A stretch of DNA of 64,000 nucleotides. Source: Escherichia coli (lineage in GTDB: Bacteria; Pseudomonadota; Gammaproteobacteria; Enterobacterales; Enterobacteriaceae). Position 1 is the stretch's first letter; each line of letters opens with the position of its first letter. This document shows, piece after piece, positions 15,210-39,134 of this stretch. A program made the translations under genes and the position numbers. The stretch lies in assembly GCF_046105845.1 (NCBI RefSeq), contig NZ_CP151004.1. The stretch is one strand, 5' to 3'. Below the pieces are notes generated by a model. The model did no database searches. It saw nothing but the letters and a program-made list of their open reading frames with translations, and had not been told where the DNA came from.

Positions 15210-15224
15210 TAATAGTGCACGACT

Positions 15225-15311
15225 GCCGGATGCGGCGTAAACGCCTTATCCGGTCTACGGGTGGCGCGGGAATTTGTAGGCCTGATAAGACGCGTCAGCG
15301 TCGCATCAGGC
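15225..15311. repeat. REP/BIME element (two inverted REP palindromes)
   Basis: GCCGGATGCGGCGTAAACGCCTTATCCGGTCTAC followed by GTAGGCCTGATAAGACGCGTCAGCGTCGCATCAGGC, between convergent frmB and yaiL. Confidence 0.65.
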
Positions 15312-15334
15312 ATCTGCGCACGACTTATCTATGT

Positions 15335-17280: not shown

Positions 17281-17314
17281 GTAGGCCGGACAAGACGTTT
17301 ACGCCGCATCCGGC
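17281..17314. repeat. REP element
   Basis: GTAGGCCGGACAAGACGTTTACGCCGCATCCGGC between mhpE and mhpT. Confidence 0.65.
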
Positions 17315-17362
17315 AGTCGTGCTGGGATGGGCATACAAAATGCACGTTCTCGGCAGTCATCA

Positions 17363-25900: not shown

Positions 25901-29013
<3,113 letters not shown>

Positions 29014-29019
29014 TAATAA

Positions 29020-30318
<1,299 letters not shown>

Positions 30319-30325
30319 GCAATTA

Positions 30326-30357
30326 ATGTCGGATGCGGCGCGAGCGCCTTATCCGAC
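30326..30357. repeat. REP-like palindrome between lacY and lacA
   Basis: ATGTCGGATGCGGCGCGAGCGCCTTATCCGAC. Confidence 0.45.
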
Positions 30358-30383
30358 CAACATATCAGGACGGAATGATCGCA

Positions 30384-30995
30384 ATGAACATGCCAATGAC
30401 CGAAAGAATAAAAGCAGGCAAGCTATTTACCGATATGTGCGAAGGCTTACCGGAAAAAAGACTTCGTGGGAAAACGTTAATGTATGAGTTTAATCACTCG
30501 CATCCATCAGAAGTTGAAAAAAGAGAAAGCCTGATTAAAGAAATGTTTGCCACGGTAGGGGAAAACGCCTGGGTAGAACCACCCGTCTATTTCTCTTACG
30601 GTTCCAACATCCATATAGGCCGCAATTTTTATGCAAATTTCAATTTAACCATTGTCGATGACTACACGGTAACGATCGGTGATAACGTATTGATTGCACC
30701 CAATGTTACTCTTTCCGTTACGGGACACCCTGTACACCATGAATTGAGAAAAAACGGTGAGATGTACTCTTTTCCGATAACGATTGGCAATAACGTCTGG
30801 ATCGGAAGTCATGTGGTCATTAATCCAGGCGTCACCATCGGGGATAATTCTGTTATTGGCGCGGGTAGTGTCGTCACAAAAGACATTCCACCAAACGTCG
30901 TGGCTGCTGGCGTTCCTTGCCGGGTTATTCGCGTAATAAACGACCGGGATAAGCACTATTATTACAAAGATTATAAAGTTGAACCTTCAGTTTAA
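30384..30995 (+). CDS. lacA: Galactoside O-acetyltransferase (hexapeptide family)
   Basis: 203 aa from ATG 30384 (MNMPMTERIKAGKLFTDMCEGLPEKRLRGKTLMYEFNHSHPSEVEKR...). Confidence 0.96.
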   Translation: MNMPMTERIKAGKLFTDMCEGLPEKRLRGKTLMYEFNHSHPSEVEKRESLIKEMFATVGENAWVEPPVYFSYGSNIHIGRNFYANFNLTIVDDYTVTIGDNVLIAPNVTLSVTGHPVHHELRKNGEMYSFPITIGNNVWIGSHVVINPGVTIGDNSVIGAGSVVTKDIPPNVVAAGVPCRVIRVINDRDKHYYYKDYKVEPSV

Positions 30996-31012
30996 ATAAG
31001 CACTGAAATAAA

Positions 31013-31042
31013 TGTCGGATGCGCCATTGGGCACATCCGACA
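31013..31042. terminator. Convergent hairpin terminator between lacA and cynX
   Basis: TGTCGGATGCGCC-ATT-GGCACATCCGACA; on the minus strand it is followed by TTTATTT. Confidence 0.5.
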
Positions 31043-31082
31043 ATAATTCACTCTTCCATTATATGGCGAAACAAGCGTCGCA

Positions 31083-32237
31083 TCATGCCTCTTTGACCCA
31101 CAGCTGCGGAAAACGTGCTGGTGCAAAACGCAGGGTTATGATCATCAGCCCAACGACGCACAGCGCATGAAACGCCCAGTCCATCAAGTAATTGCCACTG
31201 ATACTACGCAGCACGCCAGAAAACCACGGGGCAAGCCCGGCGATGATAAAACCGATCCCCTGCATAAACGCCACCAGTTTGCCAGCAATAGCGGGTTGCG
31301 CAGAGTGATCGAGCGCCAGCAGCAAACAGAGCGGAAATGCGCCGCCCAGACCTAACCCACACACCATTGCCCACAATACCGGCAATTGCAGCGGCAGCCA
31401 GATAAAGCCGCAGAAACCCACCAGTTGTAACGCCAGCGCCAGCATCAAAAGTTTGCGCCGATCCTGATGGCGAGCCATAGCAGGCATCAGCATAGCTCCT
31501 GCGGCTTGCCCAAGCGTCATCAATGCCAGCAAGGAACCGCTGTACTGCGCGCTGGCACCAATCTCAATATAGAAAGCGGGTAACCAGGCAATCAGGCTGG
31601 CGTAGCCGCCGTTAATCAGACCGAAGTAAACACCCAGCGTCCACGCGCGGGGAGTAAATACCACGCGAACCGGAGTGGTTGTTGTCTTGTGAGAAGAGGC
31701 GACCTCGCGGGCGCTTTGCCACCACCAGGCAAAGAGCGCAACAACGGCAGGCACCGCCCACCAGGCGAGAGTCTGGAACCAAATCTCGCTGTGTTGAACT
31801 AACCAGGGCGTCAGGGCGGCACCAAGTCCACCGCCGCCCATCAGAGCCGCGGACCACAGCCCCATCACCAGTGGCGTACGGTGCTTAAACCGCCGCTTAA
31901 TTACCGAAGGCATCACTGCCTGAATGATGCCGATCCCCACTCCACCAAGCAGTGCGCTGCTAAGCAGCAGCGCACTTTGGGGGTAAAGCTCACGCATCAA
32001 TGCACCGACGGCAATCAGTAACAAACTGATGGCGACGCTGCGACGTTCGCTGACATGCTGATGAAGCCAGCTTCCGGCCAGCGCCAGCCCGCCCATGGTG
32101 ACCACCGGCAGAGCGGTCAACAGGGCTGCCACGCTAAAGCTCATTCCACTCGCCTGACGCAATTGCGGTAGCAGTGGTCCGACGGAGGTGAGCAGTGGTC
32201 GCATATTAAGACCAATCAGCACCAGAACCAGCAGCAT
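31083..32237 (-). CDS. cynX: Cyanate MFS transporter
   Basis: 384 aa from ATG 32237 (MLLVLVLIGLNMRPLLTSVGPLLPQLRQ...); an alternative ATG at 32264 gives 393 aa. Confidence 0.9.
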   Translation of the reverse strand: MLLVLVLIGLNMRPLLTSVGPLLPQLRQASGMSFSVAALLTALPVVTMGGLALAGSWLHQHVSERRSVAISLLLIAVGALMRELYPQSALLLSSALLGGVGIGIIQAVMPSVIKRRFKHRTPLVMGLWSAALMGGGGLGAALTPWLVQHSEIWFQTLAWWAVPAVVALFAWWWQSAREVASSHKTTTTPVRVVFTPRAWTLGVYFGLINGGYASLIAWLPAFYIEIGASAQYSGSLLALMTLGQAAGAMLMPAMARHQDRRKLLMLALALQLVGFCGFIWLPLQLPVLWAMVCGLGLGGAFPLCLLLALDHSAQPAIAGKLVAFMQGIGFIIAGLAPWFSGVLRSISGNYLMDWAFHALCVVGLMIITLRFAPARFPQLWVKEA

Positions 32238-32269
32238 CGTGAACGTCTTTTGATGGTTACGCATGGCTG

Positions 32270-32758
<489 letters not shown>

Positions 32759-32770
32759 TTAAAAATAAGG

Positions 32771-33430
32771 TTACGCTGCGGCCGATTGGCGTAGCGGTAT
32801 GGCACAAACGCGAGGATTAGCTGCCAGTGGTACGAACTGGCGGGTTGCGCCGTCAAAGGCTGCGATGCTGCCGCTTTCAATGTCGTAGACCCAGCCGTGC
32901 AGGGCGATCCGCCCCTCTTCGAGCGCCAGGCGCACCGATGGATGAGTTTGCAAATTAGCCAACTGAGCAATGACGTTTTCACGTACCATCGCCGCAGCTT
33001 TTGACGGTAAATCGGGATGCGGGCGCGCCTCATTAACGACGCGGGCTGAATCGGCATAACGCAGCCAGTGGGAGACGGCAGGCATATGGTCCATGCACTG
33101 ACAGCTGGCAATGGCGGTCATTGCGCCACAGTTGGAATGACCGCAAATCACAATGTCAGATACCCGAAGCGCAGCGACGGCATACTCCACCGAAGCAGAA
33201 ACGCCACCGGGTTCCGGCCCGTAGGAAGGGACAATATTGCCCGCGTTGCGAATAACGAACAGATCGCCAGGCTCACGTTGCGTCACCAGCTCAGGGACCA
33301 GACGGCTGTCGGAGCAGGAGATAAAAAGTGTGCGCGGGCTTTGCTGTGTCGCCAGCTGTTTAAACAAGGCTTCCCGCTTCGGAAATGCCTCGCGCTGGAA
33401 TTTAAGGAATCCATCAATAATCTCTTTCAC
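32771..33430 (-). CDS. cynT: Carbonic anhydrase (beta class)
   Basis: 219 aa; GTG start; begins [43 protein letters not shown]. Confidence 0.95.
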
Positions 33431-33539
33431 CGTTAACCTCTGTCTGTCTCTGGAATGAGAGGCAGACTACTCGCCGATTGTCATAAGGTAAAAGTCTCAT
33501 TTATGATGAGTTCTATTGGATTTACTTATAGGTTGGCGA

Positions 33540-34439
33540 ATGCTCTCTCGACATATCAATTATTTTCTTGCCGTGGCTGAACATGGCAGCTTTACCCGTG
33601 CCGCCAGTGCGTTGCACGTCTCCCAGCCTGCGCTTTCCCAGCAGATTCGCCAGTTAGAGGAGAGTTTAGGCGTGCCGCTGTTTGACCGTAGCGGGCGAAC
33701 TATTCGTCTCACTGATGCAGGAGAAGTCTGGCGACAGTACGCCAGCCGGGCGTTACAGGAACTGGGGGCGGGTAAACGGGCGATTCATGATGTTGCCGAT
33801 CTGACGCGAGGATCGCTGCGTATCGCCGTCACTCCCACCTTTACAAGCTACTTTATCGGCCCTTTAATGGCAGATTTCTATGCGCGCTACCCCGGCATCA
33901 CGCTCCAGCTACAGGAAATGTCGCAGGAGAAAATCGAAGATCTGCTTTGCCGCGACGAGCTGGACGTTGGGATTGCCTTCGCGCCTGTGCATTCGCCGGA
34001 GCTGGAGGCAATTCCTTTACTGACAGAAAGTTTAGCGTTAGTCGTGGCGCAACATCATCCGCTGGCTGACCATGAACAGGTGGCGTTAAGTCGCTTGCAT
34101 GATGAAAAACTGGTCCTGCTCAGCGCGGAATTTGCCACCAGAGAGCAAATTGACCACTACTGCGAGAAAGCGGGGCTACATCCACAGGTGGTCATTGAGG
34201 CGAACTCAATTAGCGCGGTTCTGGAGCTGATTCGCCGCACTTCCCTTTCCACATTGTTACCAGCAGCGATTGTCACACAACATGACGGGCTTAAAGCTAT
34301 TTCTCTTGCCCCGCCACTACTGGAGAGAACGGCGGTTTTGTTGCGGCGGAAAAATAGCTGGCAGACAGCCGCCGCGAAGGCATTTTTGCACATGGCGTTG
34401 GAGGAATGTGCGGATGTTGGCGGGCATGAATCACGGTAG
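33540..34439 (+). CDS. cynR: LysR-family activator of the cyn operon
   Basis: 299 aa from ATG 33540 ([41 protein letters not shown]...); divergent from cynT. Confidence 0.93.
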
Positions 34440-34478
34440 CCACTGACACAGGTCAGTGGCTCTTCAACGCAGAGGAAA

Positions 34479-35762
34479 TTACCGTTTGTAATCGATGGCT
34501 TCTGGCTGCTCCAGATATACGGTGGTTTGTGCTGGTTGGGTGCTGGCAATCACCTTACCGCCACGTACCGAATAGCGCACCGGAACCTGACGGCGCAGCG
34601 CGTCAAACCCATTTTCAGCCGGCAGGATAATCAGGTTGGCGCTGTTTCCGGCGGCAATGCCGTAATCCTGCAAATTCAACGTCCTGGCACTGTGGTGGGT
34701 GATTAAATTCAGGCCATCGTTAATCTGCCCGTAGCCCATCAGCTGGCAAACATGCAGCCCCATATGCAGCACTTGCAGCATATTCGCCGTTCCCAGCGGA
34801 TACCACGGATCGAAGACATCATCGTGACCAAAGCAGACGTTAATGCCGGACTCCAGCATCTCTTTAACGCGCGTGATGCCGCGACGTTTTGGATAGGTAT
34901 CGAAACGTCCTTGTAGATGAATATTGACCAACGGGTTGGCGACAAAGTTAATACCGGACATTTTCAGCAAGCGGAACAGGCGTGAGGTATACGCCCCGTT
35001 ATAGGAGTGCATTGCCGTGGTGTGGCTGGCGGTGACTCGCGCGCCCATGCCTTCACGGTGCGCCAGGGCTGCAACGGTTTCGACAAAGCGCGACTGTTCG
35101 TCATCGATCTCATCACAGTGAACGTCGATGAGACGGTCGTATTTTTGCGCCAGGGCGAAGGTTTTATGCAGCGACTCCACGCCGTATTCACGGGTAAATT
35201 CAAAATGCGGAATCGCCCCCACTACATCTGCCCCTAAGCGTAACGCCTCTTCCAGCAACGCTTCACCGTTGGGATACGACAAAATCCCTTCCTGCGGGAA
35301 GGCGACGATTTGCAGATCAATCCACGGCGCGACTTCCTGCTTCACTTCCAGCATTGCTTTCAGCGCAGTCAGCGTTGCGTCCGAAACATCGACATGGGTA
35401 CGCACATGCTGAATGCCGTTGGCAATCTGCCATTTCAGCGTTTGCCAGGCGCGTTGTTTCACATCGTCATGGGTTAATAACGCTTTGCGCTCGGCCCAGC
35501 GTTCAATGCCTTCAAACAGCGTGCCGGACTGATTCCAGTTCGGTTGTCCGGCGGTTTGCGTGGTGTCCAGGTGAATATGCGGCTCCACAAACGGCGGTAT
35601 AACTAAACCTTGTTCGGCATCCAGGCTGTTTTCAGTTATGGGCATCACCCCGGATTGCGCATCAATGGCGCTGATTTTTCCGTCCAGCAGATGAATCTGC
35701 CACAGCCCCTCTTTGCCGGGTAACCGGGCGTTAATAATTGTCTGTAAAGCGTTATTCGACAC
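34479..35762 (-). CDS. codA: Cytosine deaminase
   Basis: 427 aa from GTG 35762 preceded by GGAGG ([16 protein letters not shown]...); amidohydrolase HxH motif (FVEPHIHLD). Confidence 0.95.
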
Positions 35763-37011
35763 TGTTAGCCTCCACATGCGTCATTGCTGCTGTCGTTTTG
35801 CGATTCAAAATCGGGTTAAGGATCAGATAGCTCAGCGCGCCACCTAATACCGCGTTGACCGGAACAATACCCGGTAACCAGTGGCCTGCGGCAATCCCCA
35901 GCGCGACCGCCAGAATCGCCACCCAATTGACACTCATCATACGCGTGGTCGCAAAGTGCTCATAGCGGCGACGGTTCATCAGATAGTCAGCGATGATCAC
36001 GCCCCCTACCGGAGGAATAGCTGCCGAAAGGAAGGTCAGCCAGCCGACAAAATTGTTATACAGCCATAATGCGCAGACCGTACCGATAATACCGTTGATT
36101 ACCGAAAGGGTTTTGCTCGACATACCAGTAATGTTGGCGAAACCTAAGCCCGACGCATAGAGCGCGTTATCGTTGGTGGTCCAGATATTCAGCCCCAGCA
36201 CCACAATCGCAGGCAGCAGCAGACCCTGAGCAATCATCACATCAGAGATATCCGCCATCCCCAGTGCCGCCGCGCCCGCTGCACCGAAAATAAACATCAA
36301 CGAGTTGCCGAGGAAAAAGGCCACCATCGCCACCAGCACCGCCAGTTTGGCATTACGACCAAACCGGACAAAGTCAGCGGTGAGCGTGCCCGCACTGATA
36401 AATGACCCCACAACCAGCGCCAGCGCGACATTGAAATCTAACGGTTGTGCGGGAACGACCGCTTTTAATGCGTCCAGGCCGCCCATGCCGTTAACGGCCA
36501 ACCACACGGAATAACCGCCAAGACAGGCGATAGCCGGAACTGCAATCACCGAAAGAACCATCAGCGCCGAAATGCCAAAGAAGACGGTGACGGTCATCAG
36601 TAAACCGGAGACGGCAATCAGCAAATTAATATCCAGCCCGGTTGCCTTGCCCACCGGAATGGCAAACATCGCCACGCCAACGCCAAACCAGCCAACCTGG
36701 GTGCCGCCCAGCAGCAGTGAAGGCAGCCATGAGCCTTTAACACCAAAAGAGAAGCGAGCAAGAAGATGAGTGGTCAGGCCGGTTTTTGCGCCAATGTAAC
36801 CAAGAAATGAAGTGTAAATACCGAGGAGAAGATTACCGATGAGGACTGCGAGGAAGAAATCATGATAGCTAAGACCGGTTCCGAGAGTGCCGCCGGTCCA
36901 CATACTGGCGGAAAAGAAGGTTAATCCCAGCATGACGAACGTCAATGCCAATACCCCTTTCCGCGCCGACTGCGGGACTGGCCCTTGGCTAAAGTTGTTA
37001 TCTTGCGACAC
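35752..37011 (-). CDS. codB: Cytosine permease (NCS1 family)
   Basis: 419 aa; GTG start with G-rich SD; 11-nt overlap with codA. Confidence 0.94.
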
Positions 37012-37079
37012 GAAATTCCCCCTTTTTGCTGTCTGAAACCCAAAAAATCCGCCGCATTCTATTCATCTGAAGATAAAAA

Positions 37080-37093
37080 GCAATCGTTTTCGT
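37080..37093 (-). promoter_or_regulatory. Candidate PurR box upstream of codBA
   Basis: Minus strand reads ACGAAAACGATTGC, close to the PurR consensus ACGCAAACGTTTGC-type palindrome, about 70 bp upstream of the codB start. Confidence 0.4.
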
Positions 37094-37171
37094 AGGGAAA
37101 TATATTTTTTATATGAATGAGTGCAAAAAGGTGGGGGAAAAATTATCGGTGTAAAAACAGTGGGTAGCCAT

Positions 37172-37242
37172 AATAAGACGCGGTAAGCGTCGCATCAGGC
37201 ATCGGCGCATGGTGTCGGATGCGCCAGGCGACGCATCCGACA
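37172..37242. repeat. REP-like element plus 11-bp-stem palindrome downstream of prpE
   Basis: ATAAGACGCGGTAAGCGTCGCATCAGGCATCGGCGCATGG, then TGTCGGATGCG-N8-CGCATCCGACA (37213-37242); the hairpin is a near-copy of the one at 31013-31042. Confidence 0.5.
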
Positions 37243-37247
37243 ATAAC

Positions 37248-39134
37248 CTACTCTTCCATCGCCTGGCGGATCTGATCCAACGACGCAGGATCATCAATGG
37301 TCGTCAGATCCCCAGGATCGCGTCCTTCACAAATCGCCTGGATCGTGCGGCGCAGCATTTTTCCGGATCGCGTTTTCGGCAATTGCGAGACAAACCAGAC
37401 GTGCGCCGGGCGACCAAAGTTGCCAATCTGGCTGTCCACCAGCGCCATAATCGCCTTCTCTTGCGAATGCGCCACCTCGCGGTCTTCCAGACTGTCGCTC
37501 TCTTTCGGAATGACAAACGCCACCGCCACCTGCCCTTTCAGCGCATCTTTCACCCCAACCACCGCCACTTCGGCAACGCCCGGATGACTGGAGATACTCT
37601 CTTCAATCTCGCGCGTCCCCAGCCGATGCCCGGCAACGTTAATCACATCGTCAGTGCGCCCGAGAATAAAGTGATAACCGTCAGCATCGCGGATACCCCA
37701 GTCAAAAGTGGCGTACACCGGACGGGAAAACAGCGACCAGTACGTCTTCACAAAGCGGTCGTCGTCGCCCCAGATGGTCTGAATACAGCCCGGCGGCAGC
37801 GGCCCTTCTACCACCAGCATCCCTTTCTCGTTGACGCCACACGGTTCGCCGGTGACTTCATTAAGCAACTGCACGTTATAGCCATACATCGGCACGCCGG
37901 GGCTTCCCAGACGCGTCGGCCTGTCGTCCAGACCGCGAGCAATCGCCATAATCGGCCAGCCGGATTCGGTCTGCCAGTAGTTGTCGATGACCGGCACATC
38001 CAGCGTATTGCTCACCCAACTGGCGGTCGGCTCGTCCAGCGGTTCTCCAGCCAGATAGAGCACTTCCAGCGACGAGAGATCGTGTTTGCGAATTTCAGCG
38101 GTAGGGAATTTTTTCAGCACGCGTATGGCGGTCGGCGCTGAGAACATGCGGCTAACCTGATATTTCTCGACGATTTTCCACCACACGCCGCAGTCCGGCC
38201 AGGTCGGTAATCCTTCGTAAACGATAGTCGCCATCCCCGCCAGCAGCGGCGCGTAGACGATATACGAATGCCCCACCACCCAGCCGATATCCGAAGCACA
38301 AAAGAACACACCGCCCGCTTTGCCGCCAAAAATGGTGTCCATCGAGGTCGCCAGCGCCACCGCATATCCGCCGACGTCACGCTGCACGCCTTTAGGTTTG
38401 CCGGTCGTGCCGGAAGTGTAGAGAATGCAGGAGGTTTCGTTGGATTCCAGCCACGCCACTGGCACCCGCGCGCCGATGTGTTGATGGCGCAACGACGCGA
38501 AATCGACATCCCGCCCGCTGACGCGCGCCATTTTCGCCAGCCCGCGATCCACCAGTAAAACGTGGCGCGGCTGATGCTGCGCCTGACTTATCGCATCGTC
38601 GAGTAATTTTTTATAGGGAATGATTTTGCCACCGCGCGCTCCGGCATCAGCCGAGACAATCAGCACCGGTTTAGCGTCATCAATTCGCGCCGCCACGCTG
38701 TGCGAGGCAAATCCCCCAAACACCACCGAATGAATAGCGCCAATGCGCGCGCAGGCCAGCAGGGTAATATGCGCTTCGGCAATCATCGGCATATACACCA
38801 GCACCCGATCGCCACGCTGCACGCCCAATGAACGCAACATTGAGGCCACCGCGTTCACTTCGTCATGCAGCTGACGAAAGGTAAAGGTGCGCTCTTCTTC
38901 TGTTTCCGAAGAGACGGCAATCAGCGCCAGCGCCTCTGGCTGTTTCTCCAGCCAGCGGTCGATAGCGTTGTGGCACAAGTTGGTTCGGCCTTCACAAAAC
39001 CAACGGGCAAACGGCGGATTGCTGTGATCAAGCGTTTGCGTAAAGGGCGTCTGCCAGTCAATACGCCGGGCCTGCTCGGCCCAGAACTTCTCCGGTTCGT
39101 TAATCGAACGCTGATAAAATTCGCTAAAAGACAT
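37248..39134 (-). CDS. prpE: Propionate-CoA ligase (propionyl-CoA synthetase)
   Basis: 628-aa acyl-CoA synthetase, begins MSFSEFYQRSINEPEKFWAEQARRIDW. Confidence 0.95.
   Translation of the reverse strand: MSFSEFYQRSINEPEKFWAEQARRIDWQTPFTQTLDHSNPPFARWFCEGRTNLCHNAIDRWLEKQPEALALIAVSSETEEERTFTFRQLHDEVNAVASMLRSLGVQRGDRVLVYMPMIAEAHITLLACARIGAIHSVVFGGFASHSVAARIDDAKPVLIVSADAGARGGKIIPYKKLLDDAISQAQHQPRHVLLVDRGLAKMARVSGRDVDFASLRHQHIGARVPVAWLESNETSCILYTSGTTGKPKGVQRDVGGYAVALATSMDTIFGGKAGGVFFCASDIGWVVGHSYIVYAPLLAGMATIVYEGLPTWPDCGVWWKIVEKYQVSRMFSAPTAIRVLKKFPTAEIRKHDLSSLEVLYLAGEPLDEPTASWVSNTLDVPVIDNYWQTESGWPIMAIARGLDDRPTRLGSPGVPMYGYNVQLLNEVTGEPCGVNEKGMLVVEGPLPPGCIQTIWGDDDRFVKTYWSLFSRPVYATFDWGIRDADGYHFILGRTDDVINVAGHRLGTREIEESISSHPGVAEVAVVGVKDALKGQVAVAFVIPKESDSLEDREVAHSQEKAIMALVDSQIGNFGRPAHVWFVSQLPKTRSGKMLRRTIQAICEGRDPGDLTTIDDPASLDQIRQAMEE

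Follow-up and report, generated by a model that had tools for sequence, protein, structure and literature searches.

The palindromic elements in the lacY-lacA spacer, in the lacA-cynX spacer (copy 1) and downstream of prpE (copy 2) are, in our judgement quite probably, all E. coli REP elements, of which copy 1 would be a copy of about 60 nt comprising the REP at prpE together with the 3' end of this gene, and their hairpins would act in RNA. The elements are known REPs; what is new about them is only that one is a local duplicate and carries a fragment of prpE.

The 64,000-nucleotide stretch that was analysed, hereafter the window, is E. coli DNA in reversed orientation relative to the K-12 map. 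Its gene order lacZYA, cynXST, cynR, codAB and prpE is the same as in K-12, and the genes of the lac/cyn/cod region are 96-98.5% identical to those of K-12. According to the ORF list, lacZ (25939-29013), lacY (29065-30318) and lacA (about 30385-30995) are encoded on the plus strand and are followed by cynX on the minus strand (31083-32264, stop codon at 31083-85), by cynS, cynT and then cynR (plus strand) and codA, and finally by codB (35752-37011) and prpE (37248-39134), both of which are encoded on the minus strand. Consequently, lacA and cynX are convergent, while prpE and codB are co-directional, i.e. arranged in tandem, as are lacY and lacA. A terminator/promoter scan placed a codBA promoter-like site at 37127..37099, just past a Z2-like hairpin that neighbours copy 2. 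The complete genomes closest to the window are those of strains such as E. coli 7/2; in strain 7/2 itself (L089), IS200C is located between lacZ and lacY and codA is a pseudogene. In strain CH4796 (L091), another close relative of the window, IS26 adjoins cynR and the mhp genes are rearranged.

The first-pass annotation had described copy 1 (31013-31060) and copy 2 (37213-37260) as near-identical, and indeed both are present at these positions. The term is too strong, with 39 of 48 identical nucleotides (81%) over this span, though the similarity is far above chance. A repeat finder delimited the pair as a 56-nt direct repeat (31013-31068 and 37213-37268) with 79% identity and a spacing of exactly 6200 bp. 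The pattern CATCCGACAATAANNNACTCTTCCAT has exactly two sites in the window, located at 31034-31059 and 37234-37259, and did not occur in any of 100 shuffles. The palindromes of the two copies are identical at 25 of 30 positions and their right flanks (the 37243-37268 side) at 19 of 26 (binomial P about 4e-7, p = 0.25), and the identity of the outer 30 nt is at random level on either side (left 4/30, right 6/30). Most mismatches between the copies are found in the hairpin loop and at three bases of the stop codon. The related form that had been noted upstream exists as well (30327-30357, TGTCGGATGCGGCGCGAGCGCCTTATCCGAC), and the repeat finder revealed a 17-nt stretch, AAT(T/A)AATGTCGGATGCG, that this element has in common with copy 1. 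Altogether, the core motif has 12 matches in the window when up to two mismatches are allowed, compared to 2.5 expected. In addition, 17 nt comprising the left arm and the loop of copy 2 (37215-37231) show 88% complementarity to prpE at 37259-37275 (CGCCAGGCGA / TCGCCTGGCG), which corresponds to the prpE codons just upstream of the shared tail, and the end of this complementary stretch coincides with the end of the homology between the copies.

The sequence that both copies have in common next to the palindrome is prpE sequence rather than REP sequence. As previously noted, ACTCTTCCAT at 37250-37259 encodes the end of PrpE, with ATG GAA GAG on the minus strand (37259-37251) followed by TAG (37250-37248). 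The source of the tail is the prpE stop codon with the last seven codons (I R Q A M E E *; 37248..37271, minus strand), and the stop codon and the preceding G form a REP-type GTAG (37251-37248). The counterpart in copy 1 is a non-coding relic of the prpE 3' end (31043..31071, minus strand, untranslated), whose 19/26 identity to 37243-37268 was given above and which consists of an AATAA linker, a TCA corresponding to a TGA stop codon (31048-50), GAG-GAA-ATG codons (31051-59) and diverged codons up to about 31068-71. The tail of copy 1 (31050-31059) is non-coding, because cynX ends at 31083-85, and we rejected the notion of a tail that is coding in both copies, since cynX stops 23 nt past it. 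In the lacA-cynX spacer of allele L004, the relic is better preserved (TTTCGCCAGATGATGGAAGAGTAA vs ATCCGCCAGGCGATGGAAGAGTAG in prpE) and contains seven recognisable prpE codons; when this strain, CH4796, was checked for its own prpE REP, the respective region turned out to have been moved or removed by an IS26 rearrangement.

The last seven residues of PrpE are IRQAMEE in E. coli; E. albertii has IRQAMGE and two Citrobacter species have IRQAIEE, these being the relatives included in this comparison (without E. fergusonii, E. marmotae and E. ruysiae). In Citrobacter, an unrelated hairpin and no REP is found 3' of prpE, and from the retention of the PrpE ending without a REP we conclude that the tail is native prpE sequence. 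Given that the tail is native to prpE and untranslated in copy 1, copy 1 is, as judged from the alignments, a duplicate of the REP and the last 21-27 nt of prpE (about seven codons, with the stop codon included), and the apparent direction of copying is from prpE to the lacA-cynX spacer. Such a duplication of the REP with the prpE end would also be the reason why the similarity extends past the palindrome on one side only. The most common E. coli alleles (L092-L096) terminate prpE with TAA (GAGTAAGGTATTGTCGG) rather than TAG and thus have no GTAG like that of the window, K-12 and E. albertii, which accordingly is not a conserved feature. In B2-type strains (L005), a canonical Y REP lies flush with the prpE stop codon.

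REPs are described as GTAG-preceded imperfect palindromes of 20-50 nt, of which a K-12 genome contains about 600, and which comprise the types y, z1 and z2, have a conserved AA/GC bulge and often form inverted pairs referred to as BIMEs (PMC8266576). The proposed membership in this family is supported by the alignment to naRNA4 and by the K-12 REPs catalogued in the orthologous spacers. The Rfam model naRNA4 (RF02564; one Z2+Y unit of REP325) can be aligned over its full length, with all 77 model positions covered, to the minus strand of 37166-37242 at 35.2 bits, which is below the gathering threshold of 59.5; copy 2 corresponds to the Y hairpin and its neighbour to the Z2 hairpin. The alignment of naRNA4 with 30319-30358 was likewise sub-threshold (31.8 bits, gathering 59.5). 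Copy 1 alone had no match in Rfam, and its relationship to REPs is based on its 25/30 identity to copy 2. For K-12, REP26 in the prpE/codB spacer (354600-354770), REP29 in the lacA/cynX spacer (361209-361237) and REP30 in the lacY/lacA spacer (361884-361917) are listed in the supplement of a 2026 preprint, from which we took these names; the K-12 RefSeq record, in the version used here, shows no REP features.

Copy 2 (37213..37242, minus strand) is an atypical Y-like REP palindrome that matches the prpE-proximal unit of REP26, including the same ACAATAACCTACTCTTCCAT, and forms one BIME unit with a degenerate Z2-type REP (GTAG plus CCATAATAAGACGCGGTAAGCGTCGCATCAGGCA; 37164..37201, plus strand). 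The element in the lacY-lacA spacer (30327..30361, minus strand) is a canonical Y-type REP and the orthologue of REP30, the sequence of which matches 30327-30357. The REP-derived palindrome of copy 1 (31013..31042, minus strand) occupies the position of REP29 and is unrelated to it in sequence despite the same spacer. A degenerate Z2-like REP arm, AAGCGTCGCATCATGCC, which holds the cynX stop codon (31073..31091, minus strand), is common to the K-12 allele, whose lacA-cynX spacer is identical to that of the window from aacaagcgtcgcatcatgcc onward, and this arm apparently marks the right edge of an allelic replacement. It resembles the Z2-like REP next to copy 2 (75% identity between 31056-31091 and 37168-37203). 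As references within the window we used a canonical Y+Z2 BIME at 15224-15313 and a single Y REP with an intact GTAG at 17281-17315.

The elements form stable stem-loops (-18 to -23 kcal/mol; z-scores of -2.4 to -5.3 compared to shuffles) and are extragenic, since they are located in the lacY/lacA, lacA/cynX and prpE/codB spacers and overlap with coding sequence only at the GTAG/stop. A GTAG directly 5' of the palindrome, however, is lacking in copy 1, copy 2 and the lacY-lacA REP. In copy 2 the GTAG is located 5 nt from the stem, and most E. coli prpE alleles have GTAA instead; the corresponding tetranucleotide is GTGA in copy 1 (GTAA in allele L004) and GTTG in the lacY-lacA REP. An adjacent GTAG is present only in the Z2-like unit (37164-67) and in the canonical REPs at 15258, 15277 and 17281. 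The AA/GC bulge is found in 30327-30357 (GGATAAGGCG / CGCCGCATCC) and is absent from copies 1 and 2, both arms of which are GATGCG-type, hence the missing bulge. By these features, copies 1 and 2 are to be classified as derived, non-canonical REPs, which are probably no longer recognised by the REP transposase.

With regard to the origin of copy 1, copy 2 would be an old Y-like REP of atypical form that directly adjoins the prpE stop codon and belongs to a BIME unit with the neighbouring Z2-like REP. Rather than an independent insertion of a mobile unit, copy 1 would represent a paralogous patch in the lacA-cynX spacer of one group of E. coli lineages, which may have been acquired as a templated patch, by gene conversion or by illegitimate recombination primed by REP-REP homology. 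We favour the templated patch over the alternative that the direct repeats are the scar of a gain or loss of the 6.2-kb cynXST-cynR-codAB block, or the substrate for its deletion, so that the prpE end and the REP repeats would govern gain and loss of codBA-cynR-cynTSX, a reading that we regard as possible, albeit doubtful. In the version assuming a gain, the block would have entered next to prpE by homologous recombination on one side combined with illegitimate recombination, and a truncated prpE 3' end with a REP would have been left behind at the far junction. The direct repeats, 6200 bp apart, bracket exactly cynX through codB, K-12 carries the same BIME on either side of the cyn block, and the interval is fluid, as is apparent from the prpE-REP-lacZ arrangement of E. 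albertii, from the cyn-less L006 and some E. coli strains, and from the losses of lacA. In addition, the REP of E. albertii and copy 1 have the 5-nt outer flank ATAAA in common; this match is weak, however, and the flank of the lacY-lacA REP is similarly AT-rich. The predicted lacA-REP-prpE recombinant was found in 0 of 5,426 E. coli genomes, none of which covered at least 80% of a chimeric lacA-REP-prpE query, and a short templated patch needs fewer steps. The divergence of the cyn/cod genes from K-12 (96-98.5% identity) is ordinary and nothing in it points to a foreign block, which is why we also rejected a foreign origin of the block. If the repeats were nevertheless such a scar or substrate, REP-primed illegitimate or short-homology recombination would have repeatedly rebuilt the classic lac region, which would account for the layout in E. 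albertii, for the cyn-less lineages and for the fact that about 10% of the E. coli genomes have lost lacA.

The region between prpE and lacZ is variable in its gene content. The gene lacA is missing in about 534 of the 5,426 complete E. coli genomes (~10%), for example in the strains H19, 2013C-4187 and APEC20/16 (loci L002, L087 and L088), and cynX follows 78 bp after the lacY stop codon in lacA-deleted genomes. The deletion junction is located inside the 17-nt stretch AAT(T/A)AATGTCGGATGCG (30321-30337 / 31007-31023 in the window) that copy 1 shares with the lacY-lacA REP, pointing to recombination between these two REPs as the event that removed lacA. In some E. coli strains (GN05056, L086 240-420) and in a divergent Escherichia (L006, 12660-12880), cynR-cynTSX is missing and the order is lacA-BIME-codA; K-12 has this lacA/codA BIME flanking the cyn block on both sides (L001 6420-6820 and 10130-10270). 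Within the cynR-codA spacer of K-12, a segment of about 170 bp that includes the cynR 3' end is moreover duplicated in tandem, while the same spacer of the window (34440-34480) harbors only a simple hairpin (GCCACTGACACAGGTCAGTGGC) and the BIME units of K-12 are absent there. In E. albertii NBRC 107761 (L007 8880-9060), prpE and lacZ are convergent and a single REP touches both stop codons. This strain lacks lacY, lacA, cyn and cod, and its last LacZ residues are unlike those of E. coli; a literature search on the lac genes of E. albertii yielded nothing useful. In Citrobacter werkmanii (L008 9600-14500), a small reverse-strand ORF comes after prpE, and next to it lie lacZ-lacI with about 76% identity to the window, and the adjacency of prp and lac therefore reaches beyond Escherichia.

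The lacA-cynX spacer itself differs between strains. In K-12 and O157 it is occupied by an unrelated REP29/BIME sequence, and the K-12 type is present in 3,068 genomes; the spacer type of the window was found in about 994 genomes at an identity of at least 95%, in addition to the 534 lacA-deleted derivatives, so that copy 1 occurs in roughly 1,000-1,500 of the 5,426 complete E. coli genomes. On the grounds of this spacer polymorphism, the loss of lacA and the absence of cyn, we call the prpE-lacZ interval a putative hotspot of REP-bounded rearrangement.

Copies 1 and 2 also have a strand asymmetry. On the minus strand, i.e. in cynX sense, copy 1 folds into a stem of 13 bp that is capped by a 4-nt loop and precedes UUUAUUUC (-23.3 kcal/mol vs -20.4 kcal/mol on the plus strand; z-scores -5.3 and -4.9), and copy 2 into a 13-bp stem with a tetraloop (-23.2 kcal/mol vs -18.9 kcal/mol). 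The plus-strand stems of both copies are shorter or mismatched, and the minus-strand stems are 3-4 kcal/mol stronger, with a difference of up to 8 kcal/mol in other alleles. The lacY-lacA REP has about -19 kcal/mol on either strand, and the Z2-like hairpin next to copy 2 has -15.7 kcal/mol and is followed on the minus strand by UUAUUAUGG. In the terminator scan, the minus strand of copy 1 represented the strongest terminator-like site in 30000-38000 (13 pairs followed by TTTATTTC), and the Z2-like hairpin (37196..37177, minus strand) was flagged as terminator-like as well; both combine a stem-loop with a U-tract. The scan detected nothing on the plus strand of copy 1, and copy 2 itself was not terminator-like.

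We then compared nine alleles of the two loci, derived from the window, K-12, E. albertii and six other E. coli strains. On the minus strand, all of the 117 stem cells pair; the share for the plus strand is 87%. The five stem pairs that vary all form G·U on the minus strand and are mismatched when read on the plus strand, and other variation is confined to the tetraloop. The asymmetry is based on about five substitution events, some of which may share ancestry, and corresponds to roughly P = 0.03. Since G·U pairing on one strand only is meaningful for RNA and not for duplex DNA, this pattern points to a constraint on the hairpins as RNA in the sense of the prpE and cynX mRNAs. An alternative is that the hairpins mainly act at the DNA level, as sites for gyrase, IHF or HU or in nucleoid organisation, and such roles were historically proposed for REP/BIME elements (bioRxiv 10.64898/2026.03.23.713779; PMC8266576). 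We consider this unlikely, because variable stem pairs that stay paired as G·U on one strand only would be meaningless for duplex DNA, and because the model element REP325 had no role in chromosome compaction in recent work (bioRxiv 10.64898/2026.03.23.713779).

The first-pass annotation had further regarded the elements as 3'-end hairpins co-opted for convergent operons. A role at 3' ends agrees with the folds, with the terminator scan and with published work; the convergent setting applies to lacA/cynX but not to prpE/codB, which are in tandem according to the ORF map, and a co-option is unsupported by anything in our analysis. The assumption that the hairpin serves lacA also needs revision, since it appears to be oriented for cynX, with the stronger stem, the G·U pairs and the U-tract found only on the minus strand. 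From the anatomy of the elements and from published work on REPs, we propose that the hairpins would act in RNA transcribed from the minus strand, and that a function of copies 1 and 2 as terminator and stabiliser hairpins at 3' ends is likely. Copy 1 would be an intrinsic-type terminator and a barrier against 3'-exonucleases for the cynTSX mRNA, and a weaker protective hairpin for the lacZYA mRNA. Copy 2 and its Z2 partner would end and stabilise the prpBCDE mRNA ahead of the codBA promoter, where the Z2-like hairpin looks like the terminator of the prp transcript. The distances from stop codon to stem are 5 nt for prpE, 9 nt for lacY, 17 nt for lacA and 40 nt for cynX. Liang, Rudd and Deutscher (2015) reported an effect of REPs on translation termination, which reportedly concerns stems no farther than about 15 nt from the stop codon, a distance that the prpE and lacY stems keep. 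This effect could apply at both stop codons, and copy 2, with its stem 5 nt past the prpE stop, may additionally slow terminating ribosomes.

A recent genome-wide study described REPs as partly Rho-dependent terminators and stabilisers of upstream mRNA, and located about 60% of them between convergent and about 40% between tandem genes, with 78 REPs placed inside bidirectional terminators (bioRxiv 10.64898/2026.03.23.713779). The same study reported a higher expression of convergent gene pairs with a REP and no uniform effect of REPs on mRNA half-life genome-wide (bioRxiv 10.64898/2026.03.23.713779). A literature search for a lacA/cynX terminator yielded nothing useful.

How often the REP occurs together with the tail was determined by a BLAST search of 5,426 complete E. 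coli genomes with the 55-nt prpE copy as query. The combination was present in 5,221 of them, at 1-3 places per genome (median 1) and at exactly two places in strain 7/2, which is near-identical to the window; the palindrome of copy 2 was found in 5,221 of the 5,426 genomes and in E. albertii. A query containing REP29 of K-12, by comparison, had hits with E <= 1e-5 at 5 places per genome in the median and at 13 at most. The idea of a dispersed family that includes the tail does not hold, given a recurrence at just 1-3 places, and the tail was rejected as part of a dispersed element for the same reason. The other REPs of the window (15224-15313 and 17281-17315) are devoid of such a tail.

These observations also bear on the explanation that the whole motif of 48-56 nt including the tail is a mobile REP/REPIN-type unit, which was inserted twice independently and provided prpE with its last codons and stop. 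The GTAG of the REP overlaps the prpE stop codon in some alleles, as in L005, where GAG-TAG-GTCGGATAAGG places a canonical Y REP flush with the CDS, and REPs are regarded as being mobilised by a REP-associated transposase (PMC8266576). Nevertheless, we consider this explanation very improbable. Citrobacter has kept the C-terminal end of PrpE and the codons for it (CGCCAGGCGAT.GAGGAGTA.) without a downstream REP, which contradicts a donation to prpE, the REP with the tail occurs at just 1-3 places per E. coli genome, the remaining REPs of the window are without any such tail, and copy 1 has no GTAG, a motif in which the E. coli enzyme reportedly tolerates no change (PMC8266576). That the similarity outside the palindrome merely reflects chance or a common insertion-target preference, as might be suspected from the 4-5-nt target or guide sequences used by IS200/IS605-type transposases (PMC8266576) and from the recurrence of short AT-rich flanks beside REPs, is effectively refuted by the statistics of the flank (19/26, P about 4e-7), by the absence of the CATCCGACAATAANNNACTCTTCCAT pattern from all 100 shuffles and by allele L004, in which more positions of the flank match and the similarity extends over seven codons, far exceeding the length of a target site.

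Knowledge of REP elements dates back to the 1980s, and the discovery value of our findings is small, as the REPs of all three spacers were already catalogued in K-12. The pair is rather a worked example in which similarity past a REP palindrome signals a local duplication of host sequence and not a larger mobile element, and the G·U pairs on one strand provide a small comparative hint at a constraint at the RNA level in the prpE/cynX sense. Furthermore, REPs emerge as breakpoints of natural variation in the lac region, which comprises lineage-specific spacer alleles, hundreds of genomes that have lost lacA, and the presence or absence of cyn.

Compared with known systems, copy 1 resembles intrinsic and bidirectional terminators in its location between the convergent genes lacA and cynX and in its GC-rich stem with a U-rich tract on the minus strand. 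Unlike in bidirectional terminators, its plus strand (lacA sense) has a C·A mismatch and no U-tract, and in the lacA direction it would be a weak terminator at best. Both hairpins at prpE are similar to those of naRNA4, but the score is sub-threshold and the prpE/codB locus is not REP325; the nucleoid role proposed for naRNA4 was not reproduced in recent work (bioRxiv 10.64898/2026.03.23.713779). An inverted REP pair such as the Z2+Y unit is the proposed mobile form in REPIN/RAYT systems, whereas the duplicated unit consists of a single REP with host coding sequence, its copy has no intact GTAG, and it does not look like a product of transposase-mediated mobilisation. In contrast to typical E. 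coli REP/BIME elements, copies 1 and 2 lack the AA/GC bulge, their GTAG is displaced (copy 2) or mutated (copy 1), and copy 1 carries a prpE coding fragment and replaces the REP29 sequence of K-12. In line with these elements, they are GC-rich imperfect palindromes of 30-38 nt with the core ..CGGATGCG.. / ..CGCATCCG.., the Y-like and Z2-like units adjoining prpE are in inverted orientation, and the elements are located after stop codons.
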